The notes: generated by a model not told the origin, from the letters alone. 64,000 nt of DNA from an uncultured Gammaproteobacteria bacterium (GCA_964345045.1 CAYFPM010000001.1:300215-364214); one strand, 5' to 3'; positions 7,569 to 54,816 are shown, counted from the first letter of the stretch. Translations and numbers: made by a program.

Positions 7569-7583
7569 AGATAAAAAAACAGC

Positions 7584-7606
7584 CTGTAGGCTTTTATTAG
7601 ATTATT
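7584..7606 (+). terminator. stem-loop (cagcctgtaggct) with flanking A/T runs, after the beta-CASP RNase gene
   Basis: aaaaaaacagcctgtaggcttttatt. Confidence 0.4.
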
Positions 7607-16335: not shown

Positions 16336-17157
16336 TCATGCTGCGATCCTCTCGGCCGTAGTCGAGATTACCGTACCAGCACGAGTACCGGTCATGGTGT
16401 TGCACACCTCGATCGGTACCAGGCCAGCGGCCAGCTCGACAGCTCGGGGGTGGACCACGCAGGCGTTGAGGGCAAGGAAGTTTGCCGGAGTGATCTCGGT
16501 GAACAATGTGGCATCGGCGTGTTGGTTGGGGTCTTTGTTGTAGACTCCGTCTACGTCGGTCCAGTTGCAGTGAGTAGCCGAGAGGGCCACGGCGAGTAGG
16601 CTTGCCGTTACATCCGAACCCCCACGCCCGAGCGTGATGACCCGGCCGTCTGCCGTAGCACCGTAGAAACCAGGCACGATCACCTGGTGACCATTGCATC
16701 GCTCGCGGATAAGTTGGTAGGTGGCTTCGAGGTCGATGTTGCCTTCGTCGTCCACACGGATCACATTGGCTGCGTCGACAAATTGGGAACCAGTAAGCTC
16801 GGCCATGATCTGAGCCATGAGCCACTCGCCGCGCGAGGCAGCCAAGTCGTAGCTAGACTTGATCTCAAAGCGAACCTGATTGAGAAGCTTCTCGATGTCG
16901 ATCGATAAGCCGAGCTCGGACACAATGCTCTCGAACCGAGCGACGATCGCGGCCCAGTTCGCCTCGAAGTCTTCGCCACGCTGGCAGGCAATGAAGCGGT
17001 CAGTGAGCTTGGTAGCATCGGCTGGCAACTTGCCCGGAGCCGAGCAAACGACTGCCTGGCAGCCGTGGTTGCTTTGGATGATCTCGAAAACCCGCCGGAC
17101 GTTTTGGGCACATGAAAGCGACGTGCCACCAAACTTGCAGATAGTTTTTTCGGTCAT
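16336..17157 (-). CDS. aspartate kinase catalytic (amino-acid kinase) domain, no ACT regulatory domains; high GC
   Basis: KFGGTSL and LGRGGSD aspartokinase motifs. Ends at the catalytic/ACT boundary (273 aa). Strong SD aggagggtg upstream. GC ~60%. Confidence 0.7.
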   Translation of the reverse strand: MTEKTICKFGGTSLSCAQNVRRVFEIIQSNHGCQAVVCSAPGKLPADATKLTDRFIACQRGEDFEANWAAIVARFESIVSELGLSIDIEKLLNQVRFEIKSSYDLAASRGEWLMAQIMAELTGSQFVDAANVIRVDDEGNIDLEATYQLIRERCNGHQVIVPGFYGATADGRVITLGRGGSDVTASLLAVALSATHCNWTDVDGVYNKDPNQHADATLFTEITPANFLALNACVVHPRAVELAAGLVPIEVCNTMTGTRAGTVISTTAERIAA

Positions 17158-18085: not shown

Positions 18086-19477
18086 ATGTCTACAAAAATT
18101 CAAAAAAAATTAAAAAATCTTCCAGATACACCGGGTATCTATCTTTTTTATAATTTCAAAAAAGAATTAGTCTATGTAGGCAAAGCCACTTCTCTAAAAA
18201 GTAGAGTTAGAAGTTACTTCAACAGTGGTAACAAAACTAGCCGACCAATAGAAGCACTGATTCACGAAGTGGCAGATATAAAATGGAAAGAAGCAGACTC
18301 TGTACTAGAAGCCATAATAATGGAAGCCAACCATATAAAAAAATATCAACCCAAATATAATGTAGACGGTAAAGATGATAAAAGTTGGAATTATATTGTA
18401 ATAACCAAAGACGAGTATCCACGTGTAGAGACTGTGCGACAACATGAGCTTGAAAATGTACGAAATACTAAAGATACGAAATTACGAAAATTTAACGAAG
18501 TGTTTGGGCCATATCCTGGGTTGAATACCAAAGAGACTTTGAAATTGCTAAGAAAGATTTTTACTTATTCAACCTGTCAAAGCAAGAAAGCAAAAAAACA
18601 AGAAAGCAAAAAAGTTAAGCCATGTTTTTATTATCAACTAGGGCAGTGTTTGGGGGTGTGTACTGGCGAGATAAGTTCTACAGAATACAAAGCAAAAGTA
18701 ATTAGGCCTTTGAAAACTTTTCTTGGTGGTAGAAAAAAGCAACTTATAAAAAGTTTGGAAGTAAAAATGAGAAAGGAGTCTAAGCTAGAGAATTTCGAAG
18801 AAGCAGCCAGACTTCGCAACCAGATATCGGCTTTGCAAAGGATTCATGATGTGGCGCTTTTGAATAAATCGTTTGTAGATACCCCCTCAGGCCTGCGGCC
18901 AGCTCCCCCTAAACCCTCACCCGGACGCCCTGCGGTCGTTTCGACCTCTCCCAGAGGGAGAGGTGAAAACTCTGATTCTAGAAAAGAAGTTATTAGAATA
19001 GAAGGCTACGATATTTCTAATTTTGGTGCTACTGGCAAAGTGGGGTCGATGGTGGTCTTTGAATTTGGCGAAGCCAAGAAAAAAGATTACAGAAAATTTA
19101 AAATTAAATCTGTAGTAGGGCAGAGTGATGTGGATTGTCTCGAGGAAGTTCTTGAACGCAGACTGCGTCACGCAAAAAGCAAAGAGCAAGGAACAAAGAA
19201 CAAGAAAGATTTTTGGCCTTTGCCGCAAGTATTTTTGATTGATGGTGGTAAGCCGCAGGTTAACCGGGCAAAGAAAGTTTTGAAAGATAATAAAGTGGAT
19301 GTGCCGGTGGTGGGGATTGCCAAGGGGCCAGATAGAAAAAAAAATGAATTTATATTGGGGAGTAAGAATAAAGACTTTGTTAAATGGGTTTATTCTAATC
19401 AAAAATTGTTAATCGCGGTGCGCGACGAGGCTCATCGGTTTGCAATTGCTTATCAGCGAAAATTACGAAAATTATAA
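18086..19477 (+). CDS. uvrC: excinuclease ABC subunit C (UvrC), short form without C-terminal (HhH)2, carrying an in-frame GC-rich insertion
   Basis: GIY-YIG (PGIYLFYN...VYVGKA), UvrBC-binding region, RNaseH-like endonuclease (DEAHRFAI); extra DTPSGLRPAPPKPSPGRPAVVSTSPRGRGENSDSRK. Confidence 0.9.
   Translation: MSTKIQKKLKNLPDTPGIYLFYNFKKELVYVGKATSLKSRVRSYFNSGNKTSRPIEALIHEVADIKWKEADSVLEAIIMEANHIKKYQPKYNVDGKDDKSWNYIVITKDEYPRVETVRQHELENVRNTKDTKLRKFNEVFGPYPGLNTKETLKLLRKIFTYSTCQSKKAKKQESKKVKPCFYYQLGQCLGVCTGEISSTEYKAKVIRPLKTFLGGRKKQLIKSLEVKMRKESKLENFEEAARLRNQISALQRIHDVALLNKSFVDTPSGLRPAPPKPSPGRPAVVSTSPRGRGENSDSRKEVIRIEGYDISNFGATGKVGSMVVFEFGEAKKKDYRKFKIKSVVGQSDVDCLEEVLERRLRHAKSKEQGTKNKKDFWPLPQVFLIDGGKPQVNRAKKVLKDNKVDVPVVGIAKGPDRKKNEFILGSKNKDFVKWVYSNQKLLIAVRDEAHRFAIAYQRKLRKL
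18868..18957. repeat. GC-rich composite palindromic element inserted in-frame in uvrC
   Basis: ccccctcaggcctgcggccagctccccctaaaccctcacccgg...cgacctctcccagagggagaggtg. Left half matches the uvrB element and right half the uvrA element. Confidence 0.7.
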
Positions 19478-19608: not shown

Positions 19609-19680
19609 TGGGGCGGGCCGGAATCGAACCGGAGACTCTCTGACGGACGTCAGGCGCTTTCCCAATTAAGCTACCGCTCC
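19609..19680 (-). tRNA. tRNA-like gene with atypical anticodon arm (possibly Gly-UCC-like); CCA not encoded
   Basis: Acceptor GGAGCGG/CCGCCCC (one A-C mismatch), D arm GCTT-AATTGGGA-AAGC, T arm with TTCGATT loop. The anticodon region CTGACGTCCGTCAG folds as a tight palindrome and gives a 6-nt loop under the standard template. Confidence 0.45.
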
Positions 19681-19931: not shown

Positions 19932-19960
19932 TTGACAATTTAATAAAATTGTGTTAATAA
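19932..19960 (+). promoter_or_regulatory. candidate promoter (TTGACA-17-TAATAA) for the high-GC small ORF
   Basis: ttgaca at 19932; weak -10. Confidence 0.3.
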
Positions 19961-19998
19961 AAATATATTCTCGTTTAGAGATGGAAGGAGCTAATAGA

Positions 19999-20208
19999 AT
20001 GACTAACGTTACGTACGAGACCTGCCCGGGGTGTGGTGGTACCAGGTCAAGGGGTCACTACGGTGGCACCAGGTGTCCCCGCTGTTCCAGGAATGCTCGC
20101 GAGTCCAGGCGTCGCACCGCCGCCGCGATCGGTGACGCAATCATCGAGGGGCCAATCGCGGTTGTCAAGGGCGTGAGGAGCGTCTTCAGGTTCTTAAACC
20201 AGCTCTGA
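19999..20208 (+). CDS. small Arg-rich zinc-ribbon protein (CPGCGG...CPRC), high GC (island D)
   Basis: SD ggaaggag 8 nt upstream of ATG; CxxC-x14-CxxC; GC ~62%; its own terminators follow. Confidence 0.45.
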   Translation: MTNVTYETCPGCGGTRSRGHYGGTRCPRCSRNARESRRRTAAAIGDAIIEGPIAVVKGVRSVFRFLNQL

Positions 20209-21020: not shown

Positions 21021-21962
21021 ATGAGACATGTACCAGTATTGTTAAACGAAGTATTAGAAGCACTAAATTTGGAATCAGGTAAAAATATTGTCGATTGCAC
21101 CTTAGGAGACGCTGGTCACTCGGAAAAAATATTAGAAAAGATTAGTCCAGATGGAAAATTGCTTGGAATTGATGCTGATCCAGAATCAATTTTGCGTGCC
21201 AAGAAATATTTGCATCAGTACGAAGGTAGAACTGTTTTTGTAAGAGATAATTTTGTAGGAATCAAAAGTATTGTAGAAGAAGAAAAATTTGCACCGGTTC
21301 ATGGAGTCTTACTAGATCTAGGTTGGTCTACTCCTCAGTTCGAAGAAAGAAGAAGAGGTTTTAGTTTCAAAAATTTGCAAGAACCGCTTGATATGCGCTA
21401 CGACAAGAGACGAGCTTGTAAGCACAATGTAGGAGGGGAGTATTACGAAGCTTGTACTGCGGCCAGTATCTTGAATACCGAATCAGAAAAAGAATTGGCC
21501 AGAATTTTTAAAGAATACGGAGAAGAAAAGTTTGCCAAAGAAATTGCCAAAGCAGTTGTAGAAAAAAGAAAAGAATTGGAATTTGAACTAGTAGGAGATT
21601 TGGTGAATACAGTTTTAGAAGTTTATAGAAAAAAATTAAAAACAGATAAAGAAATTCCTTGGATAGGCGGGCTGCACCCAGCTACCAAAGTGTTCCAAGC
21701 GTTGAGAATAAGTGTAAATGAAGAACTAACAGCTGTAAAAGAAACTTTGCCGCAAGCAGTAGAAGTACTGGAACCAGGTGGTAGATTGGCCATAATATCG
21801 TTTCATTCGCTAGAAGACAGAATAGTCAAACATTATTTCAAAAGTCAGGATGGAAAAAGTCTAAAAATAATTACCAAAAAGCCAATTACCTGTGGAGAAG
21901 AAGAATACAAAAATAATCCACCTTCACGTTCTGCCAAATTGCGAGTTGTCGAAAGGATATAG
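21021..21962 (+). CDS. rsmH: 16S rRNA (cytosine1402-N4)-methyltransferase RsmH
   Basis: HVPVLLNEVLEAL, SAM-binding DCTLGDAGHS, FHSLEDRIVK. Confidence 0.9.
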   Translation: MRHVPVLLNEVLEALNLESGKNIVDCTLGDAGHSEKILEKISPDGKLLGIDADPESILRAKKYLHQYEGRTVFVRDNFVGIKSIVEEEKFAPVHGVLLDLGWSTPQFEERRRGFSFKNLQEPLDMRYDKRRACKHNVGGEYYEACTAASILNTESEKELARIFKEYGEEKFAKEIAKAVVEKRKELEFELVGDLVNTVLEVYRKKLKTDKEIPWIGGLHPATKVFQALRISVNEELTAVKETLPQAVEVLEPGGRLAIISFHSLEDRIVKHYFKSQDGKSLKIITKKPITCGEEEYKNNPPSRSAKLRVVERI

Positions 21963-21995
21963 GAAGTAGGCAACAGGCAATAGTTATTAGAAAAA
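21963..21995. repeat. TAGGCAACAGGCAATAG motif plus imperfect hairpin after rsmH (family also at 37888 and 44733)
   Basis: gaagtaggcaacaggcaatagtt...ctattacct. Confidence 0.5.
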
Positions 21996-37248: not shown

Positions 37249-37872
37249 ATGAGTTACTTAAGTGAATTTAAGAAAAAACATCCGGATTTGTTTACTTATC
37301 TGCCGGCCAACGAAATCCACCCTCACGATCATATGATGGAGAGGACTTTTTTGCGTTTGTTGCCACGTAGCATTACTCCAAATCAAGTAACCTTATTTAG
37401 AATAATAACTACTCCGATAGTATTTTTGACGATACTTTTTGGAGATTACACCCTTGGGGTGGTATTTTTTGTATTGGTAGCCTTTACCGATGCTATAGAC
37501 GGGTCGCTCGCCAGAACCAAACACAAGGTAACCAAGTTTGGAATGTTGTTTGATCCTTTGGCCGACAAACTCCTCATTGGATCAATGGTGCTTTTGTTGG
37601 TGTTTAAATATTTTAATTTGTGGCTTGGAGTGGCTTTGCTTGGAATTGAAATTATTTTTATTATGACAGCTTTGGTAGCCGGTACAAAATTCAAAACAGT
37701 CCACGCTGCCAATCGTTGGGGTAAGATAAAAATGATTTTACAAGTTTTGGCTGTCTTTTTTACTTTGCTCGCGCTTTTGTTGGAATTCCCAACTCTTATG
37801 ACTGTAGCAGCTTGGCTTTTTGGTCTGGCCATTGGTTTTGCTGTGCTTAGTCTGTTTTCGCATGGGATTTAG
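37249..37872 (+). CDS. CDP-alcohol phosphatidyltransferase (native, low GC)
   Basis: D-G-x2-A-R...G-x3-D-x3-D: FTDAIDGSLARTKHKVTKFGMLFDPLADKL. Confidence 0.8.
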   Translation: MSYLSEFKKKHPDLFTYLPANEIHPHDHMMERTFLRLLPRSITPNQVTLFRIITTPIVFLTILFGDYTLGVVFFVLVAFTDAIDGSLARTKHKVTKFGMLFDPLADKLLIGSMVLLLVFKYFNLWLGVALLGIEIIFIMTALVAGTKFKTVHAANRWGKIKMILQVLAVFFTLLALLLEFPTLMTVAAWLFGLAIGFAVLSLFSHGI

Positions 37873-37887
37873 ATAGGAGATAGGGAG

Positions 37888-37960
37888 TAGGCAACAGGCA
37901 ATAGTCTTAAATATCAAAAACTATTGCCTATTTTCTACTGACTCCTGCCTATAAAAATGA
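37888..37960. repeat. TAGGCAACAGGCAATAG-family long imperfect hairpin
   Basis: gggagtaggcaacaggcaatagtcttaaatatcaaaaactattgcctattttctactgactcctgcctat. Confidence 0.5.
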
Positions 37961-38018: not shown

Positions 38019-38729
38019 TTAGTTATCGAGGGCTTTTCTGGCGTCTAGCTTTTGGAGCAGGCTGCGAATCCCAAAGGGAATGGCAATCGCCCCGGCGACT
38101 GTAGCCACGTAGAGCGGCCAAGTGCCTACGCTTTGGTCGGCGTATAGAATGCCTCCCACCAGAATCAGCTCTGCTACCATCTTGATCTTGCCAGATAGCT
38201 TGGCTTTGAGATCCAGCTGTTTGCCGGATTCGAGAGCCACAGCTTCTTTGTTGGATTGGTAGTCCTCCACTCGGATAACCAAGAGTGCCATTTCGAGTAG
38301 AAAGAGGGCTGTACAGACCATAACCTCTGCACTCACAAGGAGTGGAGGAGGTTTTATCTCTATTTGCTTGGTGCAGATCAGTGACAGGAGTAACAAGAAA
38401 TACACCTTGTCGCCGACAGCATCGACATACGCGCCGTAATCTCCGGCGGTGCCTTTGGCTCTTGCCACCAGTCCATCGACGTAGTCGAGAAAACTGTTGG
38501 CGGTGTAGGCCAGCAAGATCAAGCTCATGTAGAGCAGGTTTTCGCTGTAGCGAATACTGGCAAGGCCAATGGGAATGGCCATGACCACCCGAAAGTAGGT
38601 GATCCGGTTGGCCGTGATCCAGCTGGGCAGCCTCTTGGCAGCGGGGATGAAGGTGCGGTCAAGCCAGGAATATCCCCGGCCGAAACCACTTTCGATCGAG
38701 GTGGCGAGGGTCGTCGTGTCCTGGCTCAT
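38019..38729 (-). CDS. CDP-alcohol phosphatidyltransferase paralog, high GC (~58%) (island F)
   Basis: LDYVDGLVARAKGTAGDYGAYVDAVGDKV motif; convergent with the native paralog; AT-rich SD aaggaagg upstream. Confidence 0.75.
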   Translation of the reverse strand: MSQDTTTLATSIESGFGRGYSWLDRTFIPAAKRLPSWITANRITYFRVVMAIPIGLASIRYSENLLYMSLILLAYTANSFLDYVDGLVARAKGTAGDYGAYVDAVGDKVYFLLLLSLICTKQIEIKPPPLLVSAEVMVCTALFLLEMALLVIRVEDYQSNKEAVALESGKQLDLKAKLSGKIKMVAELILVGGILYADQSVGTWPLYVATVAGAIAIPFGIRSLLQKLDARKALDN

Positions 38730-41557: not shown

Positions 41558-42386
41558 AATGGAAACAGAAAATAATAAACAATTTATAACTAGATACAAA
41601 TCTCACGAGGATAGAAGCAAACCTCATAGAGTTTTGGATACAGTAAAGGTGGGTAATATTTATGTGTCGAGATTAGAGTTAGAACATGGAGCTGTGGCTG
41701 GAAATACTTTTCACAAAGAAACCAACGTAATATTATTTGTAACCAAAGGCGTGGTGAGAATGAGGTTTGCCGATATAGAAACCGGGGCTACCGAAGAGTT
41801 GGATGTTAAACCAGGTTTTGGGATTATCCACCAACCTCCAAAATCAGCACTGGCTGCCAAAAATATTAGCATGGGCAAAGCTACGATTGTGTTTTTTTCC
41901 AATAGAAGATTGCGAAGTGGAGACGATTACGAGTATATTCTTTATGACCCTTTTAATGGTACTCCGATAGATATAGAATACACTGCCAAAGTTCCACCAA
42001 AACAAAAACCCATGACGCATTATCCCTTGAGACATGATCGTACCAAACCGGGACGTTTGCTAGAAGTGGTAAAAGTAGGTGATGTCCATATTAGTAGATT
42101 GACAATAGATCCAGGTGTAGTTACCGGCAATATGTATCACAAAGATACCAGTGTTATTTTGTTTGTGATAAAAGGAAGATTAAAATTTAAATTTGTACAA
42201 ACACAAACCAAAGAAGAAAAAGAATTTGTAAAACAGGTGGGGAGTGGTATAACCTATATGCCGCCATATGTAGCTATGGCCGACAAAAATATTTCTGATG
42301 AACCGGCTATAGTTATACTTTTTTCCAATAAACCTTTGCGTTCTGGAGATGATTTTGAATACAAAGTATATCCAACCAGAGACTAA
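41550..42386 (+). CDS. tandem WxcM/FdtA-like cupin protein (putative dTDP-4-keto-6-deoxyhexose 3,4-ketoisomerase)
   Basis: Two ~135-aa repeats with an FHK(E/D)T..ILFV.KG...F cupin core; adjacent to rfbB. Confidence 0.5.
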   Translation: MLKMETENNKQFITRYKSHEDRSKPHRVLDTVKVGNIYVSRLELEHGAVAGNTFHKETNVILFVTKGVVRMRFADIETGATEELDVKPGFGIIHQPPKSALAAKNISMGKATIVFFSNRRLRSGDDYEYILYDPFNGTPIDIEYTAKVPPKQKPMTHYPLRHDRTKPGRLLEVVKVGDVHISRLTIDPGVVTGNMYHKDTSVILFVIKGRLKFKFVQTQTKEEKEFVKQVGSGITYMPPYVAMADKNISDEPAIVILFSNKPLRSGDDFEYKVYPTRD

Positions 42387-42475
42387 TTAAAGTAATAAAA
42401 TGTATTAATGTGGTAATACATTGATACATTGGACAAATTTACAAAAACAAGGTTTTGTTAACTAGATAAAATAAT

Positions 42476-43477
42476 ATGAATTTGTTAATAACTGGTGGAG
42501 CCGGATTTATGGGCTCGCATTTTGCCAAATATATTTTGAAAAAATATCCAGATTACAAGGTTGTTGTTTTTGATAAATTAACCTACGCCGGTAACTTGGA
42601 CAATCTAAAAGAATTAGAAAATAATGCTAATTATACTTTTGTAAAAGGGGATATTTCAAACGAAAGTGAGGTTAATCAAGTTATAGAAGATTTTGCTATT
42701 GATAGAATTGTAAATTATGCAGCCGAAACTCATGTAGATAGATCTATTATAGATCCAAAAGCTTTTTTGATGACAGATGTAATTGGGACTTATACGCTGT
42801 TAGAATCTGTACGCAAATACAATTTGCAAAAAATAGTACAAGTTTCTACAGACGAAGTTTTTGGAGATATAGAACTTGGCAAATTTACCGAAGAATCACC
42901 ATTTAAACCGAGTAGTCCTTACTCGGCTGCCAAAGCTGGTGGAGATCATCTTTGTCATGCCTACTTTAGAACTTATCAAACTCCGGTAGTGGTTACTCAC
43001 AGTTGTAATTTTTATGGACCAAATCAATATCCAGAAAAGTTAATTCCACTGTTTGTAACTAATTTGCTAGAAGATAAAAAAGTTCCACTTTATGGAGATG
43101 GTTCACAGGTGCGTGAATGGATTTTTGTAGACGATCATTGCCGGGCTATTGATACAATTTTGCACAAAGGTGTATCTGGCGAGGTTTACAATATTGGAAC
43201 TGGTCACGAAGAAAGTAATCTAGAAACAACAAAGAAACTTTTGCAAATACTTGGCAAGGACGAATCGAGTATAGAAAATGTGAAAGAAAGACCAGGACAT
43301 GATGTTCGCTACGCTGTTGACTCTAGTAAACTTCGTAATGAACTAGGTTGGGAGCCGCAAGTAGATTTTGCAGAAGGTTTAGAAAAAACAGTGGCTTGGT
43401 ATAAAGAGAACAAAGCTTGGTGGGAAAAAATAAAAAGTGGGGAGTACGAAGAATATTATAAGAAGCAGTATAGATAA
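42476..43477 (+). CDS. rfbB: dTDP-glucose 4,6-dehydratase
   Basis: GGAGFMGSH Rossmann, YSAAKAGGDHL catalytic YxxxK. Confidence 0.85.
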   Translation: MNLLITGGAGFMGSHFAKYILKKYPDYKVVVFDKLTYAGNLDNLKELENNANYTFVKGDISNESEVNQVIEDFAIDRIVNYAAETHVDRSIIDPKAFLMTDVIGTYTLLESVRKYNLQKIVQVSTDEVFGDIELGKFTEESPFKPSSPYSAAKAGGDHLCHAYFRTYQTPVVVTHSCNFYGPNQYPEKLIPLFVTNLLEDKKVPLYGDGSQVREWIFVDDHCRAIDTILHKGVSGEVYNIGTGHEESNLETTKKLLQILGKDESSIENVKERPGHDVRYAVDSSKLRNELGWEPQVDFAEGLEKTVAWYKENKAWWEKIKSGEYEEYYKKQYR

Positions 43478-43496
43478 GAGGCTGGAGAAGCTAGAG

Positions 43497-43550
43497 AGGC
43501 CTGAGAAGCTGGAGAGGCTTTAGAGGCTTAATTGTTTTTTGCCTTTTGAT
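43497..43550. repeat. left terminal inverted repeat (AGAGGCT/GGAGAAGCT units) of a mini-cassette
   Basis: gaggctggagaagctagagaggcctgagaagctggagaggctttagaggcttaa; its revcomp matches 43833-43872. Confidence 0.55.
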
Positions 43551-43563
43551 TTTTTAAAAATTT

Positions 43564-43785
43564 ATGAAATCTGATAAGTTCAATGACAAATATGAGGCAG
43601 TTGGTTTATTGTTGGGATTGTTGTTTACTTTTAGTATTACTAATTATCTTAACTATCTGTCTAATCAATTAAACAAACCCTTATTAGGTGAATTTTCTAT
43701 GATTTTTTTTATAGTTGGTTTACCTGTGTTTGGTTTACTTGGTTTTTTTTGTGGAAGTTATTATAAAAAGCGTTTCAAAGAATAA
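43564..43785 (+). CDS. small 2-TM membrane protein (73 aa) inside the TIR-flanked mini-cassette
   Basis: Two hydrophobic helices; flanked by ~40-bp imperfect inverted repeats. Confidence 0.35.
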   Translation: MKSDKFNDKYEAVGLLLGLLFTFSITNYLNYLSNQLNKPLLGEFSMIFFIVGLPVFGLLGFFCGSYYKKRFKE

Positions 43786-43832
43786 AGTAAAACTAGAAAA
43801 TCTTGAAAAGTTTGAGAAGTTTAATTATTTTT

Positions 43833-43872
43833 CCTCTCCAGCCTCTCAGGCTTTTCTAGCCTTTTAAGCCTT
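43833..43872. repeat. right terminal inverted repeat of the mini-cassette
   Basis: cctctccagcctctcaggcttttctagccttttaagcc. Confidence 0.55.
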
Positions 43873-43886
43873 TAATAATAAAAAAT

Positions 43887-44729
43887 ATGCGTATTTTAAT
43901 AATAGGAAATGGTTATCTTGGCAACAGATGTAAGGAAGTTTGGGGTGAAGAAGCAGTGATAGAAGGTGCTAGAAATATAAAATCAAAAGATGATGTTTTG
44001 CAATTGATTGAAAAACATAATCCAGATGCCATCCTTAATGCCGGAGGAAGAAAAGGGAGTCCAAACGTGGATTGGTGTGAAACTAATCAAACAGAAACAG
44101 TTACTGGAAATGTAACTATCCCGCTTCTAATTGCCGAAGCTGCTGCTGAAAAAAATGTGTATCTGCTTCACTTGGGATCTGGTTGTATTTTTTATGGCGA
44201 CTCGCCCCACCCGGACAAAGCTTGGCGCGAAGATGATTTTGGTAATCCAAAACCTGTTTACTCGCGCACCAAATGGGCAGCCGACCTAGCGCTCTCTACT
44301 ATGCCAAATGTAGGGATTGCCAGAATCAGAATGCCAATAGACAACCGTCCGCATCCGGGCAATCTAATAGACAAGTTGGCTAGTTACCCAAAAATTATTG
44401 ATGTGGAAAATAGTGTAACGATTATTCCAGACATGATAAATGTTTTTTATAAACTAATGGAAAAAAAAGGAGTAGGAATTTTTCATGTTACCAATCCGGG
44501 ATCCTTGCGACACAAGCGTGTAATGGAGTTGTACCGAGAGTTGGTTGACCCTAGTCATAACAACGAGTGGATAGAGAATGAAGAATTAGTAAAAAATGGT
44601 TTGGCAGCCAAAGGCCGATCGAACAATATTTTGCATTCGGAAAATTTGGAGAAATTGGGAATTGAGATGAGGCCGGTAGAAGAAGCGATTGTGGAGACGA
44701 TGAAGGAATATACTAAAAATAGAGGTTAG
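43887..44729 (+). CDS. RmlD-like NAD(P)-dependent sugar-nucleotide reductase
   Basis: MRILIIGNGYLGN Rossmann; RmlD substrate-binding family. Confidence 0.55.
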   Translation: MRILIIGNGYLGNRCKEVWGEEAVIEGARNIKSKDDVLQLIEKHNPDAILNAGGRKGSPNVDWCETNQTETVTGNVTIPLLIAEAAAEKNVYLLHLGSGCIFYGDSPHPDKAWREDDFGNPKPVYSRTKWAADLALSTMPNVGIARIRMPIDNRPHPGNLIDKLASYPKIIDVENSVTIIPDMINVFYKLMEKKGVGIFHVTNPGSLRHKRVMELYRELVDPSHNNEWIENEELVKNGLAAKGRSNNILHSENLEKLGIEMRPVEEAIVETMKEYTKNRG

Positions 44730-44732
44730 GGG

Positions 44733-44760
44733 ATAGGCAGGAGGCAATAGTGAATAGGTT
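44733..44760. repeat. TAGGCA(G)GAGGCAATAG-family motif after the rmlD-like gene
   Basis: ggggataggcaggaggcaatagtgaatagg. Confidence 0.45.
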
Positions 44761-45028
44761 GTAGTGGGTAGTGGTTTGGTGGATGTTTTTTGGCTAAATT
44801 TAGATAAAAAAGTCTAGCTTGGGCTAGCTTTTTTGGTTTTATCTGATTTTGGTTGACAAAAGGTGTTTTTTTTGGTAATTTTAGCTGTCAATTCTATAAT
44901 AGGATAATTGTATGCGGAGACTGTAATTGGTTGGGAGAAGGTGAAATTTCTTCCACCCTATGCGTTCTTCGTCGTTCAGAAATTTTTAGTATGAACGGCA
45001 AAACAATTTAGAAGGAGGAAGGTTAGAA

Positions 45029-45868
45029 ATGAGTGACAAAAAAGGAAAAGTAGAAGTCACTGAGCAGGTTCATCTCGGACGATCTTGGAGGGTAGGTGAA
45101 GCGTACGATCCTGGTTCCGATATGCCCACGGGTATGGAGGAAGTGCCGAAAGACTTCCTTGACGATGATGGTGCTACGGAGGATGAGCCTGACGATACAG
45201 AGGTTCAACTGGTTCGTCCGCTCACAGACAGCCAAGTGGATCAGCCTGCCCCCGCCGGGCTGGGCTACTACGATGAGCCTCCTACGGAGGAGGGCCCCCC
45301 TCTTCCTTCGGAATCGCCTGCTGTGGTCTCTATCCCCACCGATACGCTCGTGCAGCAACCGGCATTGAGTTGGTGGCAGATTCCTGGCAACTGGGTCAAG
45401 GTGGTGACTATCTTGCTCGTTTTTGTCGTGGCTCTTTTGTTGGGCATGCTCAACAAAAAGTCGGATGAAGAGATCAAGGCTGAACCGCTTGATCAAGCTG
45501 CCCCGGCAAGTAAGCTGGTAGACATTCCCGATGATCCCCCTGTGGCTACGTCGGCGGTCGCTACCGCCCCAGATGCTGGAGTGATGCCCGAGGATCCTCC
45601 TCGGGTAGCTCCAGTGCTCAGGAGGAGTGGTCCTGATGCGGGAGTGAAGAAGGCGGTCAAGAGGAAGGCAAAGAAACGTCGGGAGAAACGCAAGAAGAAA
45701 CCGGCGAAAGATCCAGAAGAAACTACTACCACCCACCAACTTTTGCCTGGAGAGTCTGTCGAAGACTACTGTGACCGGTGGTCTGCCAAAACTTTTTCCA
45801 GCCCTGGCTTGGCTAGGATTGGCGCTTACAAAAGCTGTGTCAAGGAATTGAAAGGAGGAGGCAAATGA
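45029..45868 (+). CDS. single-pass membrane protein with acidic Pro-rich N-region and Lys-rich C-region; high GC (island E gene 1)
   Basis: SD gaaggagg upstream. The first ~14 codons are AT-rich and then GC rises to ~62%. One TM helix (VKVVTILLVFVVALLLGML). Confidence 0.5.
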   Translation: MSDKKGKVEVTEQVHLGRSWRVGEAYDPGSDMPTGMEEVPKDFLDDDGATEDEPDDTEVQLVRPLTDSQVDQPAPAGLGYYDEPPTEEGPPLPSESPAVVSIPTDTLVQQPALSWWQIPGNWVKVVTILLVFVVALLLGMLNKKSDEEIKAEPLDQAAPASKLVDIPDDPPVATSAVATAPDAGVMPEDPPRVAPVLRRSGPDAGVKKAVKRKAKKRREKRKKKPAKDPEETTTTHQLLPGESVEDYCDRWSAKTFSSPGLARIGAYKSCVKELKGGGK

Positions 45869-46791
45869 GAGCCTTCGTGATTGCTATCTTTTTGGTTTTT
45901 TCTTCCAGCTTGATGGCGCAAGCCTCTGACTGGAAGGACGTTCTGCATCTCCCTCCGAAAGATCCGGGCAGCCCACGATTGGTGGGCAAGGCAGCCGACG
46001 TCATGGGGGCTTTGGCTCACTGTCAGCAAGAAGTCCGTTGTCAGATCTTGGTGAAGGAGGATAAGCCCGGTGGGACTGAGTATGGGAATATGTGGCACGA
46101 GGAGTGTTACGAACTTCTCAACTCGGCCGCGATCATGAAACCAGGGCCGGAAACTTGGTTCGTCTCGGAAAAAGACGAGATGGTGGTAGCGATAGATGAT
46201 CCTGGCTCTGGTGGCCACGAAGGTGCTGTGATCAAGTGCCGAGTAGATCCCAAGCCGGCTACCATGCCCTCTATGCCATCGTCACCCCCACCAACCGTAG
46301 CCAAAGCGGTCGAACTTCAAGGTGAGAGCGATTTCAAGTTCGCCCTCACAGTCGACTTCGGAGTCGGTTTCTCACGACTCGATCCGTCGCCGGACCATTA
46401 CTTCGACGGTACGGTCGGCATCGGAGGACTGCTCTTGATCAATGATTTCTGGGAGGTCGCTCTCCGAATCGACTTTGGTGGGACATTCCGCGAGGGACAG
46501 ACGTGGTACTTCGTACCACAGCTCTCTGGCGGGGTGCGACCGGCCGACTGGATATACTTCGGCGTCTTTGGGCGCCTTGGTGGTGCAACCCAGGGATCCT
46601 ACTGGGGTAACCTAGGATTTGGAGTACGGGTGTACCCGCTCAAGATCTTCGGATCGGAGTTCCCGTTGGCTGTCTTCTTCGAGACCGATGCCCTTGGGCG
46701 TCAGGTCACACCGGAGACCGAGACCCACAACCCTGGCGATCAGGGGCGCATGGGCCTGCGCGGTGGTCTACGCTACGAAGCTTTTTTCTAA
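45865..46791 (+). CDS. secreted protein with beta-barrel-like C-terminus ending ...YEAFF (island E gene 2)
   Basis: Signal peptide MRAFVIAIFLVFSSSLMAQA; Gly/aromatic-rich alternating pattern; terminal Phe like OMP beta-barrels; ATGA overlap with gene 1. Confidence 0.5.
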   Translation: MRAFVIAIFLVFSSSLMAQASDWKDVLHLPPKDPGSPRLVGKAADVMGALAHCQQEVRCQILVKEDKPGGTEYGNMWHEECYELLNSAAIMKPGPETWFVSEKDEMVVAIDDPGSGGHEGAVIKCRVDPKPATMPSMPSSPPPTVAKAVELQGESDFKFALTVDFGVGFSRLDPSPDHYFDGTVGIGGLLLINDFWEVALRIDFGGTFREGQTWYFVPQLSGGVRPADWIYFGVFGRLGGATQGSYWGNLGFGVRVYPLKIFGSEFPLAVFFETDALGRQVTPETETHNPGDQGRMGLRGGLRYEAFF

Positions 46792-46911
46792 CGTTCATTT
46801 TTTGGCGGATGAGATCTTTCGAGATCCATCCGCCCCGTTCACATGTTCAGCATTGCAAATGCTGTGCAGGTGTTGGGTAACGCTCTTTCAAATTTTGGAA
46901 AGGAAAACAAG

Positions 46912-48384
46912 ATGAAGAAGATCGCTTTGGCCGTCTTGGCCGCACTGTTCACCTCCACCGGCTGCGAGGTGGTAAACCTCGGCAGCCCGGGTATGGCGCC
47001 GACTGAGAAGCACTTCGTGCAGTATGACGGCGGAGATCTCGACGCAGGTTTCATCGTCGGCGACGACGTGGGGCCCATCGATATGGGCTTCATCGACGCT
47101 GGCTACGATGTCGGCTTCCGCGACGCCAACCTCGACGCAGAGGCAATGGATGCGATCGCTGACGCCGACGTGACCGATGTCTACGACGACGTTGGGTTCG
47201 CTGATGCAGAAGCAGATTCTGGTCTGGACGACAGCGGGGTTCACCCCGATGCCGACTTGCCGGACGCGATCGTAGACTCGGGACCCGAGGATACTGGCGT
47301 CCACCCGGACGCCTTTGTCCCCGACATGGGTTTCCCAGACGCCGAGCCGATCGACGCCGTGATCCATCCCGATGCGGAGATTACGGACAATGGAATCCAC
47401 TTTGACGCCACAGTATACCCCGATGCTACGCCAGACACAGGGTTCCCAGACAGCGGCTTTGCCGACTCTGGGACTCTGGATTCTGGACTCGACGCTGGGG
47501 TTATCGACGGTGGTGGCCCGCCTGTTTGTCCGGCCGGGTTCATCTATGTAGCTCCTGGTTCGTTCACTATGGGGACTCCGGCTGCAGCACCGTGGTTCTC
47601 CTCGCCAGAAGGACCGCAACACCAGGTCAGTTTGACCTATGGCTACATCATGGGGGAGACCGAGGTAACCAGAGCCCAGCTGCAAGCAGTGTTGGGCATT
47701 GCTCGAGATCCTTCTTGGAACACCGGCTGTGGGGCAAATTGCCCGGCTACCAACGTGAGCTGGGACCTGGCGGCCGAGTATGCCAATGCTCTTTCTATTA
47801 GCCAAGGTCTGTCTCCATGCTACGCTGGCTCTGCCGGGAGCTACACTTTCGTAGGACTCTCGTGTACTGGCTGGCGTATGCCGACCGAGGCCGAGTGGGA
47901 ATTTGCCGCTCGAGCTGGTAGTACCACTGCCTTTTGGAATGGTGACCCAGTGAACTTCTCCTCGGGGAGTGCTATGACAACCTTTGGTGAGCCTGGGCAT
48001 GCAATTGCCTGGTGGTTGGCCAATAGTCAGGTAGCCTACACTCCAGCTGTGGACACGTTCACGGCTCCGGACAATGGATTTACCATGGCTGGTACGCACC
48101 CGGTAGCCACCAAGACCCCCAATCCGCTCGGTCTCTATGACATGAACGGCAACGTCTGGGAGCTTACCTCGGATTGTTGGACGCAGACCTACCCGGGATC
48201 AAATCCCAGAACCAATCCGGTGACCGGGGCTGGTACCCGGTGTGCCAGTATTGTGAGGCGTGGAGGAAGTTTTGCCGACCCGCAAAGCTCCTTGCACAAC
48301 TCCACTAGGTTTGGAGATTTCCCGCATGTTCAGAATCCTCTCAATGGTTTCCGGATAGCGCGTAATCACCCGGCCTGCCAGTAG
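46912..48384 (+). CDS. lipoprotein with Asp-rich HPDA repeats and C-terminal FGE-sulfatase (SUMF1/DUF323) domain (island E gene 3)
   Basis: Lipobox LFTSTGC; GSFTMGTP...TNVSWDLAAEYANALS...GWRMPTEAEWEFAARAG...YDMNGNVWELTSDCW...RGGSF. Confidence 0.7.
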   Translation: MKKIALAVLAALFTSTGCEVVNLGSPGMAPTEKHFVQYDGGDLDAGFIVGDDVGPIDMGFIDAGYDVGFRDANLDAEAMDAIADADVTDVYDDVGFADAEADSGLDDSGVHPDADLPDAIVDSGPEDTGVHPDAFVPDMGFPDAEPIDAVIHPDAEITDNGIHFDATVYPDATPDTGFPDSGFADSGTLDSGLDAGVIDGGGPPVCPAGFIYVAPGSFTMGTPAAAPWFSSPEGPQHQVSLTYGYIMGETEVTRAQLQAVLGIARDPSWNTGCGANCPATNVSWDLAAEYANALSISQGLSPCYAGSAGSYTFVGLSCTGWRMPTEAEWEFAARAGSTTAFWNGDPVNFSSGSAMTTFGEPGHAIAWWLANSQVAYTPAVDTFTAPDNGFTMAGTHPVATKTPNPLGLYDMNGNVWELTSDCWTQTYPGSNPRTNPVTGAGTRCASIVRRGGSFADPQSSLHNSTRFGDFPHVQNPLNGFRIARNHPACQ

Positions 48385-48583
48385 AGTCGCCTCATTTCTT
48401 TTCCTTTTACCCCTCTCGAGTCACGCCCACCCAAGCGCGACTCGAGAACATCCATCCCATACTTTTTTAACACTGATTACGCTGATTTAAATTATAGATT
48501 TCGCAGATTTATATGTGTGTGAAAGGTAAGTTTACTAGGTGTAGGATGATTGTTTTTTTACACAGATTACATAGATTGATACA

Positions 48584-48676: not shown

Positions 48677-49453
48677 ATGGATTTATCTATAATTACAGTA
48701 ACTTGGAATTCCGAAAAATATATAGCAGACCAAATTAGGTCTGTTGTTTTGGCTGCAGAGAATTTGGATTATGAGCAAATAATTGTCGATAACAATTCCT
48801 CTGATAAAACAATAGAGTTGGTAGAAAAAAAATTTCCAAATACAAAATTAATAAAAAACAAAAAAAATTTTGGTTTTGCCAAAGCCAATAATCAAGCATA
48901 CAAAATAGCCAAAGGTGAATTTGTCTTGTTTCTTAATCCAGATATGAAAGCAGAAGAGGGGACTATACAAAAAATGATAAATTGGATGAAAGAAAACAAA
49001 GATGTAGGGATACTTTCACCAAAACTTTTGGATGAAAATAAAAAACTAGATCCAACAGCTACCCCAAGAAGATTTCCAACTTTGTTTGACCAGCTATTAA
49101 TTTTTTTCAAAATACCTCGATGGTTCCCAAAAATTTTGGATAAATATCTTGGCCGAGATTTGGATTTGGAACAAGTACAAATAGTAGATTCTGTGCAAGG
49201 AGCATTTATGTTGGTAAAAAAAGAATTGCTAGACCAAATTGGTTTTGCTTTTGATGAAAGATATTTTATCTGGTTCGAAGACGTAGACCTGTGCAGAGAA
49301 ATAAAAAAATTAGGCTACAAAGTGGTTTACAACCCAACTTGGTCGGCTACAAATTTTGGTGGCAAAAGTTTTGCCAAAAGAAATTTATTTTGGAAGCAGA
49401 TTAGATTTTTTAGAAGTGCTTTAACTTATTTTGTAAAATGGGGATTGAAGTAG
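48677..49453 (+). CDS. GT2-family glycosyltransferase
   Basis: ITVTWNSEKY..., DNNSSD, DxD region. Confidence 0.8.
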   Translation: MDLSIITVTWNSEKYIADQIRSVVLAAENLDYEQIIVDNNSSDKTIELVEKKFPNTKLIKNKKNFGFAKANNQAYKIAKGEFVLFLNPDMKAEEGTIQKMINWMKENKDVGILSPKLLDENKKLDPTATPRRFPTLFDQLLIFFKIPRWFPKILDKYLGRDLDLEQVQIVDSVQGAFMLVKKELLDQIGFAFDERYFIWFEDVDLCREIKKLGYKVVYNPTWSATNFGGKSFAKRNLFWKQIRFFRSALTYFVKWGLK

Positions 49454-52399: not shown

Positions 52400-53485
52400 A
52401 TGATTAAAAAAGCTATTCTAACCGGTGGTGGTAGAGCAACTAGATTGCATCCTATTACTACTACGACCAACAAACATTTACTGCCTCTGGCTAACAAAGC
52501 CATGATTGTTCATGCTATAGAAAAAGTGAGAGATGCCGGCATAGAAGAAATTTTTATAAATACCAATCCTGGAGAAAAATCTTTGCAAGAATTTTTGGGA
52601 GATGGTAGCAAGTTTGGAGTAAAAATAAAATTTTTTGAACAAAATGGGGGACCTCAAGGCATTGCTCATGTGGTAAACGAGGCCAAAGAATTTATTGGCG
52701 ATGATCCGTTTATGTTTTATTTGTCGGACAATATTTTGCTTGGAGGAGTAAAAGAAATGGTAGAGGATTTTAATCAAGGAGATTATGATTGTATGTTGGC
52801 TTTGTCCGAAGTAACTGATCCTCAAAGATTTGGTGTACCATATTTTGGAGAGAATGGAGAATTGCTCGATGTAATAGAAAAACCAGAAAATCCACCAAAT
52901 AATTTGGCTGTAACAGGAATTTATCTATATGGGCCTCGAATGTTTTTTGATACTTTTCAAAATATAGAAAAAAGCGATAGGGGAGAATATGAAATATCTT
53001 CAATTCATTCACACTTTTTGAAAAATAATAAAAAAGTTGGTTACAAAGAAATCACTGGTTGGTGGAAAGATACTGGCAAAAAAAATGATTTGATTATTGC
53101 CAATCGTTTGCTTTTGGAAGCTATGTCAGATAATGAATTTTCTATAGATGTGGAGTTGGAAGAAGATACTGTGATTGAAGGAAACGTGGCCATAGGCAAA
53201 GGAACAATAATAGGTAAAAATGTAAAAATAATAGGACCGGTGGTGATTGGAGAGAACTGTGTTTTGGAAAATTGTGTTGTGGGTAGTGATGTGTCTGTGG
53301 AAAAAGGAGTAGAAATAAAAAAAGCTACGATAACTAATTCGGTTGTGTTGAGTAATGCCAAGCTAAATTGTAATAAAAAAATTACCGATAGCATGATCGG
53401 TAGATTGGTAGAATTGGTAGACGCAGAAGAAAAAACTGACGAATACAAAATGATTTTGGGAGACAAAACAGTAATAGAGTTTTAG
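52400..53485 (+). CDS. sugar-1-phosphate nucleotidyltransferase (RmlA-like) with C-terminal left-handed beta-helix
   Basis: LTGGGRATRLHP signature; hexapeptide repeats in the C-terminal third. Confidence 0.75.
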   Translation: MIKKAILTGGGRATRLHPITTTTNKHLLPLANKAMIVHAIEKVRDAGIEEIFINTNPGEKSLQEFLGDGSKFGVKIKFFEQNGGPQGIAHVVNEAKEFIGDDPFMFYLSDNILLGGVKEMVEDFNQGDYDCMLALSEVTDPQRFGVPYFGENGELLDVIEKPENPPNNLAVTGIYLYGPRMFFDTFQNIEKSDRGEYEISSIHSHFLKNNKKVGYKEITGWWKDTGKKNDLIIANRLLLEAMSDNEFSIDVELEEDTVIEGNVAIGKGTIIGKNVKIIGPVVIGENCVLENCVVGSDVSVEKGVEIKKATITNSVVLSNAKLNCNKKITDSMIGRLVELVDAEEKTDEYKMILGDKTVIEF

Positions 53486-54816
53486 ATACTCATGGCAAAC
53501 AAACCAAATTTTTCATCTATTTGACCAAGAAAAACAAGCTTATTTTCCTCTTGATAAAAAGAGGAATTTTTAATATTTCCCTCGTATAATTTTTGAGAGA
53601 TAAAGTAACCAGGATTAAAGGCTAATAATTCTTGGTTTTTTCTAATGAAGAGTACCCCGAATTGATCAAGAGGACTAATCTCTTGCATAGCTTCTCCGGT
53701 TCGGATTAATGATTCTGTATTTCCATCATTGTAAACAGTCCACAATTCCCAAGGAGACCAAATCAACCATTCATCATTATTTTTGTTGTAGACAATTTTG
53801 GAAGCTTCTGTAGTCTGAGTATGTCCATCTTTTTTAATTGTATAAAATCGGTTATCTGATTGTAAAATATTTCTATTTTCAGAGATTTCAATAATAGAGT
53901 TTGGATTTACAAAAGGAGGAATGCTTTTGTGTTCTTCATTTTTTGAAAGATTTTCCAAGCTGTTTTTTTCGGAGTTGTATATCCAGATGTTGCTTTTGGA
54001 ATCTAGCCCCCAGACTATGTCTCTATTTGGCAACGATAATATTTTTTTCTTATCTCCATTTTTTAATTCAATTATATCCAAATTTTCTTGTACATATAGA
54101 GTTTGTTCATCACTGTTTTTGGACCATTTGTAGTTTGTTTTGTAATCGTCTAGAGAAATAGTATAAGTTTCCAGCTCCAAAGGTTTTTCTGGATCAAGTA
54201 AAGTTATGTTTTGTAAGTTTTTTGATTCTCGAATAATAAAAGCAGTATCAACAAAAGGTGACCATTCAATTTTGCTGGCGTTTTGTTTGGACAATCGGGT
54301 TATTGTTTTTGTTTCGTTTTTTGCAATGTCGTACAAGTCTATAGTTTCTACGCCTTGTTTTGTTTTTTGGAGTAGAATATATTTTCCAGAAGGGGAAGTT
54401 TTGTAATCTGTCAAAGTATTTTTTTCTATTTCCAAAAGTAGTTTTGGTTCAGTTTTTTTATAAAGTTTAATATTTTTTACAAAAGTAGTTTGTTTGCTGT
54501 TTACAATTATATCTTTTTCCCATGGCAAATAATTATCTTTTTCAATTTTGAGTTTGTATGTTCCGGGAGCGCGATTGGTCAACCTGATCGGAATTTCTTT
54601 TTTTATTCTGATATCGTTTATATAAACACGAGCATCTGTAGGTTCTACGTCTATACTTATAACTCCGGTTTGTCTGACTTGTTTGGTAGCAAAGTCATAC
54701 CTGTAACCGGCGGTATATAGGATAATAAGTGGGGCGGACACCAAAAAAACAATAATAAGAAATATCATAATTGCTCTTCTGATCGGTCTGGTTAGAAATA
54801 TATCGGGATAAGACAT
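53482..54816 (-). CDS. membrane-anchored PEGA-domain protein with beta-propeller-like C-terminal region
   Basis: N-terminal TM helix; PEGA: ISIDVEPTDARVYINDIRIK...GTYKLKIEKDNYLPWEKDIIV. Confidence 0.5.
   Translation of the reverse strand: MSYPDIFLTRPIRRAIMIFLIIVFLVSAPLIILYTAGYRYDFATKQVRQTGVISIDVEPTDARVYINDIRIKKEIPIRLTNRAPGTYKLKIEKDNYLPWEKDIIVNSKQTTFVKNIKLYKKTEPKLLLEIEKNTLTDYKTSPSGKYILLQKTKQGVETIDLYDIAKNETKTITRLSKQNASKIEWSPFVDTAFIIRESKNLQNITLLDPEKPLELETYTISLDDYKTNYKWSKNSDEQTLYVQENLDIIELKNGDKKKILSLPNRDIVWGLDSKSNIWIYNSEKNSLENLSKNEEHKSIPPFVNPNSIIEISENRNILQSDNRFYTIKKDGHTQTTEASKIVYNKNNDEWLIWSPWELWTVYNDGNTESLIRTGEAMQEISPLDQFGVLFIRKNQELLAFNPGYFISQKLYEGNIKNSSFYQEENKLVFLGQIDEKFGLFAMSI

Follow-up and report, generated by a model that had tools for sequence, protein, structure and literature searches.

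Genomic islands in surface-polysaccharide loci are among the described systems closest to the locus considered here: they are marked by atypical composition and patchy distribution, and they lie within glycan clusters that collect other foreign genes, in all of which this locus resembles them. Horizontal gene transfer (HGT) and islands are reported to be common in groundwater Patescibacteria (PMC12455944); our literature search on HGT and GC content in Magasanikbacteria, the lineage concerned, returned nothing. We analyzed a stretch of 64 kb (CAYFPM010000001.1:300215-364214, hereafter the window), which is part of a 621,257-bp contig and provides the numbering used throughout, and we focus on a cassette of three genes, g1, g2 and g3, that forms an island of high GC content. 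Our preferred reading, to which we assign a rough probability of 0.55 as a whole, including the surface-module function discussed below, is that the cassette is an old foreign islet. A high-GC bacterium would have been the source of the block, gained in a single insertion by the ancestor of a small Magasanikbacteria clade; the cassette would then have been passed on vertically without changing its locus, with rapid divergence of its proteins. The results bearing on this reading concern composition, gene structure, fold predictions, distribution and synteny.

The region from 45070 to 48460 has a GC content of 0.570, as against 0.372 in the remainder of the window. Other 3.4-kb windows average 0.375 (standard deviation 0.033, maximum 0.449), which places the island at z = 5.9. 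At a resolution of 300 nt, GC content is 0.52-0.63 within the island and 0.27-0.46 in the 5 kb on each side, with the edges of the step near 45050 and 48450. An earlier note on this DNA, made from the sequence alone, had described a jump from ~35% to ~62%; its position was correct but its level was not, since 62% is the peak and 57% the mean. The excess is present at codon positions 1, 2 and 3. GC content at third codon positions (GC3) is 0.54, 0.63 and 0.64 in g1, g2 and g3, compared with 0.16-0.48 in all but three of the other window genes, and Gly, Ala, Pro and Arg together make up 31-35% of the cassette residues versus 18% in flanking proteins. Both the nucleotides at every codon position and the choice of amino acids thus support a foreign composition of the block. 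GC3 is bimodal across the window genes, and the island is not the sole place where it is high, as three further single-gene islets reach a GC3 of at least 0.63.

The cassette comprises three open reading frames (ORFs) on the plus strand, the third of which is open from 46843 to 48384 (513 aa). Translational coupling of all three had been claimed. The first two overlap at an ATGA, with GGAGGAGG located 5 nt ahead of the g2 start; g3, however, most likely begins at the ATG at 46912 (MKKIALAVLAALFTSTGC), and given this start a spacer of 120 nt with a 13-bp hairpin separates it from g2 (46792-46911), so that the three ORFs stand but coupling is limited to g1 and g2. The segment 46785-46915 folds at -44.4 kcal/mol (z -3.9). 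Both the AT-rich promoter-like site and the Shine-Dalgarno sequence previously noted ahead of g1 are present, the promoter being a consensus match only, as 4 sigma-70-like consensus sites were found versus 2.8 expected in shuffles. The features of the cassette and its immediate surroundings are as follows.

43887-44729, plus strand: rmlD-like gene of host composition, left neighbor of the insertion gap
44814-44827, both strands: bidirectional terminator-like hairpin after rmlD (CTAGCTTGGGCTAG, then a T-run), marking the end of the host-like upstream gene
44872-44900, plus strand: candidate sigma-70-like promoter, TTGGTA-17-TATAAT, 10 of 12 consensus matches, in AT-rich, host-like DNA
45011-45018, plus strand: Shine-Dalgarno sequence GAAGGAGG, 10 nt ahead of the g1 ATG
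45029-45868, plus strand: g1, bitopic membrane protein of 279 aa (alignment of four orthologues)
45865-46791, plus strand: g2, signal peptide and predicted barrel, 308 aa (alignments, AlphaFold2 model)
46804-46834, plus strand: intercistronic hairpin between g2 and g3, GGCGGATGAGATCT-ttcg-AGATCCATCCGCC
46912-48384, plus strand: g3, lipoprotein of ~490 aa from its likely start (Pfam, lipobox, orthologues)
48415-48446, plus strand: GC-rich hairpin, CTCGAGTCACGC...GCGCGACTCGAG, directly past the stop codon of g3, where the high-GC block has its right edge
48677-49453, plus strand: GT_a, first of four family-2 glycosyltransferases (GT2), right neighbor, in the same place in the related contigs L005, L006 and L041

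The hairpin at 48415-48446 lacks a T-run and was not called in a terminator scan; it is likely to be a 3′ end or a stabilizer. Rfam searches gave no match inside the cassette or adjoining it. An apparent TATAAT in the segment 48655-48679 lies only ~8 nt ahead of the GT_a ATG, and the GT_a mRNA may be leaderless or nearly so.

The genes that surround the cassette are chromosomal or core genes, encoding LepA, MurJ, CorA, UvrA/B/C, MraZ/MraW, ClpB, DnaB, RecR, MurA and an S41 protease. An alignment of GT_c, another of the glycosyltransferases, yielded 34 syntenic loci in GTDB species representatives, most of those with informative names being Candidatus Magasanikbacteria or Patescibacteria, and on this basis the host, which had been described as resembling members of the candidate phyla radiation (CPR), does belong to that group, as one of the Candidatus Magasanikbacteria (Patescibacteria/CPR). 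At least six further lineages of Magasanikbacteria have homologues of the cassette, which lies in the rmlD/GT_a locus on all contigs that are informative, directly 5′ of GT_a in L005, L041 and L006 and directly 3′ of rmlD in L044. The contigs are arranged as follows.

L005 (Logan, 26 kb): g1-g2-g3, four GT2 genes, NTP-transferase, PEGA protein, MurA and S41 protease, as in the window; cassette GC 0.57-0.63, flank GC 0.35-0.44
L041 (JGI, 30 kb): same arrangement as L005; cassette GC 0.43-0.51, flank GC 0.31-0.40
L006 (short contig): g3 followed by the first part of GT_a; whole-contig GC 0.59
L044 (short contig): rmlB-rmlD-g2-g3, with g1 absent; cassette GC 0.62-0.64, flank GC 0.50
L042 and L043 (short contigs): cassette fragments; whole-contig GC 0.59 and 0.64

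None of 34 GTDB relatives (34/34 negative) has g1, g2 or g3 within 10 kb of the locus. The earlier note had held that its proposal would fail if homologues proved widespread in related low-GC genomes, and this is in part what we find: at least six other lineages carry the cassette, at the same locus wherever the contig is informative, and 34 species lack it. This combination of atypical composition and patchy distribution (7 lineages with, 34 species without) is that of a genomic island. For g2, a word-indexed search of 5.8 billion clusters recovered only the protein itself and its counterpart in L005; an exhaustive HMMER search of 1.84 billion representative proteins added five, giving a family of seven true members, and scans of GTDB genomes, JGI metagenome contigs and viral contigs found nothing. 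Two further candidates, P0131 and P0132, were rejected as their multi-stretch matches cover the Pro-rich linker only.

Descent of the locus can be followed in the flanking genes. Among the window, L005 and L041, flank proteins are 33-78% identical, but cassette proteins are only 25-41% identical. In a neighbor-joining tree built from 2116 alignment columns of six flank proteins in 29 taxa, these three carriers group together with 73% bootstrap support, and they group with L017, their non-carrier sister, at 100%. In L017, rmlD abuts GT_a and no cassette is present. Unrelated high-GC ORFs stand ahead of GT_a in other Magasanikbacteria (L021 5276-6810, L030 5764-6411, L031 6094-6816, L024 5069-5647, L033 2317-2946 and L007 51-1671); they encode NUDIX hydrolases, an FdtA-like cupin and members of two unknown families, and several of them sit between rmlD and GT_a. 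This part of the glycan locus therefore collects high-GC genes repeatedly.

The three products are distinct in architecture. g1 begins with a variable acidic N-tail, followed by a conserved x-W-W-Q motif (L-x-W-W-Q) and one transmembrane helix at ~aa 121-146, in line with its earlier description as a single-pass membrane protein with an acidic N-region. Past the helix, a spacer rich in Pro, Val, Ala and Thr leads to a basic patch (KKRR), and the C-terminus has a Cys motif. W115, W116 and the C-terminal Cys are kept in the four orthologues aligned, and most orthologues end with C..K[ST]G..CC..C. There is no Pfam family for g1, and a family profile found no match among PDB sequences. The NCBIfam TonB model matches aa 122-232 at 9.6e-5 (22.3 bits, cut-off 265); we reject an identification as TonB, since the match covers the transmembrane and Pro-rich parts only, is judged compositional, and is accompanied by no Pfam TonB_C domain.

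g2 has a Sec signal peptide with cleavage past AQA, an A-x-A site at ~aa 20, an alpha/beta N-domain with four conserved cysteines (C53, C59, C81 and C125) and a Pro-rich linker at ~aa 128-155. The cleavable signal peptide, the Gly/aromatic-rich C-terminal half and the ending YEAFF noticed earlier are all present. AlphaFold2, given an alignment of seven sequences, models aa 158-307 as an 8-stranded barrel, with a predicted local distance difference test score of 76 overall and 85-93 across most of the barrel, and the top 39 Foldseek matches of this model are without exception outer-membrane barrels (39/39; NspA, OmpA, OmpX and Ail). The model has the features expected of this class, namely a signal peptide and eight long antiparallel amphipathic strands that close a barrel. 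Of the two sides of the strands, one has 68% apolar and 23% aromatic residues; on the opposite one, small residues account for 46%, Gly for 25% and charged residues for 23%. The C-terminal half of g2 is predicted to be an OmpX/NspA/OmpA-like 8-stranded barrel, and the outer-membrane type proposed earlier is borne out at the level of the model. Six family members gave no Pfam or NCBIfam match at E<=1, and a family profile gave none at E<=10 against all PDB sequences. All three of the single-nucleotide polymorphisms between samples (3/3) are non-synonymous, and two of them fall in g2 (V100A and L238F), a small hint of diversifying pressure.

In g3, a signal peptide and lipobox (MKKIALAVLAALFTSTG followed by C; 46912-46965) precede an acidic stalk of ~170 residues built of degenerate D-[ST]-G-[VI]-H-P-D-A repeats (~47020-47517) and a head with the FGE/C-type-lectin fold of formylglycine-generating enzymes (FGEs) at 47536-48363. 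The Pfam domain FGE-sulfatase (PF03781) is recognized at aa 232-507 with 3.4e-40 and 138.7 bits against a cut-off of 23.3. Judged by eye against a PROSITE-type pattern, the lipobox Cys is found in 6/6 orthologues read, the five outside the window having LSALSGC, LSLSAC, FFCAC, LFLSGC and WTCAC. The lipobox, the HPDA acidic repeats and the C-terminal FGE-sulfatase domain were therefore correctly recognized from the outset. An identity as a true FGE is not supported. FGEs carry a catalytic, copper-binding pair of cysteines just past an RGGS motif, and no such pair is conserved in g3, where the window has RRGGSFADPQSSLHNSTRFGDF (no Cys), L005 has LRGGAFNVPLESIRTARR and L041 has TRGGSFADGFRNSRTG. 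The best PDB match is TvpA (1.6e-15), followed by PvdO, a CotH-labelled chain and PorK/GldK-type lipoproteins (PorK 1.9e-9), and true FGEs appear as the 8th and later matches at ~1e-7. A scan of 33 ORFs of the window and the genes tabulated for L002, L005 and L041, L002 being a second assembly of the window locus, revealed no sulfatase gene. We reject g3 as a true FGE, on the grounds that the conserved cysteine pair is missing and that TvpA, PvdO and PorK/GldK outscore real FGEs; because no Cys pair is conserved, the head is probably a non-catalytic domain of the FGE/C-type-lectin fold. Among NCBIfam models, GldK matches at 3.3e-20 with 72.8 bits against a cut-off of 350, and PvdO and EgtB also fall far under their cut-offs. 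An assignment to PorK/GldK is rejected too, with a score far under the cut-off and the partner genes absent from the neighborhood.

All three products are predicted to be exported or membrane-anchored and all have long spacers, and the neighbors of the cassette are rhamnose-precursor genes, four GT2 genes and a gene for a PEGA-domain protein. Signal peptides, the lipobox and the arrangement of cysteines are retained across orthologues. The three genes probably encode a surface adhesion or host-contact apparatus; the complex, its topology and its function, like the type of donor, are what we infer. In such a module, g1 would be the membrane-anchored stalk, held in the cytoplasmic membrane with its N-terminus inside and with a long Pro-rich spacer ending in a small Cys knob. 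g2 would be Sec-exported and would consist of a disulfide-bonded N-domain, a Pro-rich linker and the barrel, which might sit in the outer membrane of a partner cell or in an undescribed outer layer of the bacterium itself. g3 would be lipid-anchored, with the acidic stalk carrying a lectin-like head. Heads of this type may bind ligands, as in TvpA, or belong to structural lipoproteins, as in PorK/GldK, and that of g3 would bind a glycan or another surface ligand. The PEGA-domain protein encoded in the glycan locus of the window (53482-54816, minus strand, 444 aa) is conserved in L005 and L041. PEGA domains are also fused to the nearest outside FGE relatives (P0026 and P0028).

Several results weigh against an old islet of this function, and we gather them here. 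Had a single transfer taken place long ago, neutral third positions would be expected to match the host by now, and they do not: the GC3 of the cassette exceeds that of its flanks by ~0.33 in the window, 0.30 in L005, 0.12 in L041 and 0.13 in L044. A donor genome with g1 or g2 was not found among 1.84 billion representatives, in GTDB, or among JGI and viral contigs. Each carrier FGE head is closer to an outside family than the carrier heads are to one another, and these heads were monophyletic in 111 of 500 bootstraps. By distance, g2 divides into a type A (window, L041, L043 and L044) and a type B (L005, L042 and P0130) that do not follow the flank tree. Signatures of mobility are missing, with no integrase among the window ORFs scanned, no flanking repeats and no tRNA target beside the cassette, the sole tRNA of the window being at 19609-19680. 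As for the barrel, it is a predicted structure derived from a seven-sequence alignment, with no sequence link to families of outer-membrane proteins (OMPs). The terminal-Phe signature on which it was first proposed does not hold, as the C-terminal aromatic beta-signal is not conserved across the seven g2 homologues, which end in F, L, L, P, F, R and L. Finally, an OMP-like barrel has no obvious home in this reportedly monoderm lineage; Patescibacteria are reported to lack an outer membrane (PMC12102498; PMC8871954), which leaves an unrecognized outer layer, the outer membrane of a partner, or a barrel that is really soluble.

The persistence of high GC would be explained if the copy in each lineage were young. 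Under such a model, the rmlD/GT_a gap is a hot spot of recombination or insertion, like the variable parts of O-antigen and capsule loci, at which an outside high-GC pool supplies homologous cassettes, either as repeated replacements or through independent acquisitions. Cassette switching of this kind would account for a GC3 excess in all carriers despite saturated divergence, and it is in keeping with the FGE heads, which are 45-52% identical in trimmed columns to a PEGA-FGE/multi-FGE family on GC-0.64 contigs and 32-36% identical to one another by BLAST. The existence of these relatives on GC-0.64 contigs also fits a high-GC donor pool as required by a single old transfer. The two g2 types favor switching as well, the window being nearer to L041 in g2 and nearer to L005 in its flanks; so do the variable left side of the cassette (L044 lacks g1, and the upstream neighbor differs in L005), the unrelated NUDIX, FdtA-like cupin and other high-GC ORFs at or near the equivalent position elsewhere, and the three additional single-gene islets in the window. 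However, the postulated pool is invisible, since no outside organism with g1 or g2 appears among the 1.84 billion representatives, and the flank tree unites the carriers in one clade. Because the g2 tree lacks an outgroup, the conflict with the flanks is unproven and the A/B split may reflect differences in rate. The GC3 of the L041 cassette has come down to 0.36-0.47, as expected of a resident copy. A NUDIX islet shared by L021 and L031 is also instructive: it is conserved like its flanks (91%), drifts in step with them and retains a GC3 excess of ~0.2 while both genomes drift, and it looks vertically inherited. We regard switching as a possible but unlikely origin of the cassette.

We are more doubtful of a bolder proposal, in which the cassette is a host-contact device of diderm-type parts whose GC content is actively maintained. 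The lectin-like lipoprotein would find the surface of a partner, the barrel would insert into the outer membrane of a diderm host, and the Pro-rich g1 stalk would tie the complex back to the symbiont; high GC, as in other islets of these genomes, would be kept up through repeated exchange with partners of high GC content or else through selection or biased conversion, and would not be what is left of a single old transfer. Selection or GC-biased gene conversion at a recombining locus is also invoked by an explanation that we consider improbable, namely that g1, g2 and g3 are native, clade-specific genes. It would be consistent with a GC3 offset that every lineage shows and that follows the GC content of the host as this shifts, and with the failure to find a donor for g1 or g2. 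Yet the amino-acid usage of the cassette is also that of a high-GC organism, the closest relatives of the FGE head are on GC-0.64 contigs outside the clade, and 34 related species are without the genes; moreover, we know of no mechanism by which selection would keep the composition of the cassette high.

A recent transfer from a Myxococcota-like diderm, with gene 1 joined in situ to a promoter and initial 14 codons of host origin, was the explanation offered in the earlier note, and we now find it very unlikely. High GC, the diderm-like architecture and the occurrence of acidic-repeat FGE lipoproteins on other high-GC contigs, one weak match being labelled Myxococcota, are in its favor. It is contradicted by the cassette's presence, in one and the same place, in lineages with flank proteins of only 33-78% identity, which speaks against recency, by the distance to the nearest outside FGE domain (42-44% identical, on a GC-0.64 contig) and by the lack of relatives of g1 and g2 outside the clade. 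Nor does the fusion survive comparison with L005, whose g1 orthologue keeps the N-terminal M-x-D-K-K..E.TE.V.L and is GC-rich from the start codon. The N-terminus is therefore part of the ancestral gene, and its AT-richness in the window probably reflects Lys and Glu codons.

Slighter still is the chance that g3 is the variable protein of a diversity-generating retroelement (DGR) and the cassette a hypervariable ligand-binding locus. The idea is suggested by TvpA, the best solved relative of g3 and itself a lipoprotein that a DGR varies and that has a C-type lectin fold of the FGE type, and DGR targets of this fold are reported to be common (PMC11661182). The 64-kb window, however, contains no template-type repeat of the g3 3′ end, neither the scan of 33 window ORFs nor the genes tabulated for related loci included a reverse transcriptase, and g3 is identical in two samples. 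An assembly chimera or contaminated bin, in which a high-GC piece was joined to a CPR contig, would produce the sharp step in composition but is excluded for practical purposes, given that two separate assemblies from other runs of the same project, both >99.9% identical to the window, cover the junctions (L002, run ERR2281803, a 40.6-kb contig matching 35865-54333 with one mismatch in 18,469 nt, spans both, and L001, run ERR2281800, matching 42132-46279 with two mismatches, spans the left one) and that the same arrangement recurs in different species from other projects.

Other features of the window deserve mention. The three single-gene islets of high GC3 are an amino-acid kinase gene (16336-17157, minus strand, GC3 0.70) that adjoins a gene resembling diaminopimelate/ornithine decarboxylases, a second CDP-alcohol phosphatidyltransferase gene (38019-38729, minus strand, GC3 0.66) and an ORF for a Cys-rich protein of 85 aa (19951-20208, plus strand, GC3 0.63). 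Between an RNase J-like gene and uvrB lie ~880 nt of GC-rich (0.49-0.54), non-coding DNA (7580-8460) with no ORF >119 aa and no Rfam match. Its minus strand folds at -393 kcal/mol versus -282 kcal/mol when shuffled (z -11.5), and its plus strand gives z -6.7, making the region a candidate for a large structured RNA of unknown class. A GC-rich element of 76 nt with two hairpins (AAACCCTCACCC...CGACCTCTCCCAGAGGGAGAGGT) is found within the uvrA and uvrC ORFs, at 12123-12198 and 18911-18986. The two copies are 75% identical, have only a weak, sub-threshold match to Rfam whalefall-1, and look like a palindrome that was inserted into the coding sequence. Purine-rich intergenic repeats (GATAGG.GATAGG.AGTAGGCAACAGGCAATAGT) occur past several genes, at 21951-21984, 37872-37905 and 44725-44758, and a 44-nt inverted repeat (43474-43517 and 43833-43876) surrounds a small ORF at 43564-43785; both are possibly lineage-specific terminator or regulatory motifs.

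To our knowledge, host attachment and envelope make-up in CPR/Patescibacteria are largely uncharted, and the locus offers a small, conserved and testable set of genes beside those for surface glycans. If the barrel is real, either some Magasanikbacteria would possess an unrecognized outer layer or the barrel would be meant for the membrane of another cell. The lasting GC3 excess, seen in the cassette and also in other islets of these genomes, is at odds with simple amelioration, and the locus could serve as a natural system in which to study compositional heterogeneity in streamlined genomes. If, on the other hand, it is no more than an old surface-protein island, the cassette is an instance of well-documented, ordinary HGT in CPR bacteria.

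Comparison with described proteins places each gene product near, but not within, a known system. Like TonB, g1 has an N-terminal transmembrane anchor followed by a Pro-rich, charged spacer; unlike TonB, it lacks the TonB C-terminal domain, no ExbB/ExbD genes are nearby, and its L005 orthologue does not match the TonB model. g2 resembles NspA, OmpX, Ail, the N-domains of OmpA/OprF, OmpW and PagL in predicted fold only. Its barrel comes last in the protein, after a soluble domain with disulfide bonds and the Pro-rich linker, and the family is confined to a CPR clade and has no sequence similarity to any OMP family in Pfam, NCBIfam or the PDB, those of these 8-stranded proteins included. The likeness between g3 and TvpA of Treponema denticola (PDB 2Y3C) is closer, as both are lipoproteins with an FGE-fold domain, TvpA is a surface protein thought to bind ligands, and neither shows a conserved cysteine pair of the FGE type. 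A DGR diversifies TvpA, in contrast to g3, at which no template repeat, reverse transcriptase or variation between samples was found, and g3 adds the acidic repeat stalk of ~170 residues and two conserved partner genes. PorK/GldK and GldJ are likewise FGE-fold lipoproteins, which are structural parts of the type IX secretion/gliding envelope complex and act beside membrane-anchored partners. g3 differs from them in its score (72.8 versus 350 bits), in its neighbors, which are g1, g2 and glycosyltransferases instead of PorL/M/N-like proteins, and in belonging to a host lineage reported to be without an outer membrane. The cassette as a whole is of a kind already known, a compositionally atypical island in a surface-glycan locus, but it differs from other such islands in that no integrase, tRNA or direct repeats were found and in a compositional offset that persists through deep divergence. 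Three points are new: two protein families not described before, those of g1 and g2, an OMP-like barrel kept in a CPR clade, and a GC excess that has outlasted the deep divergence of its carriers.

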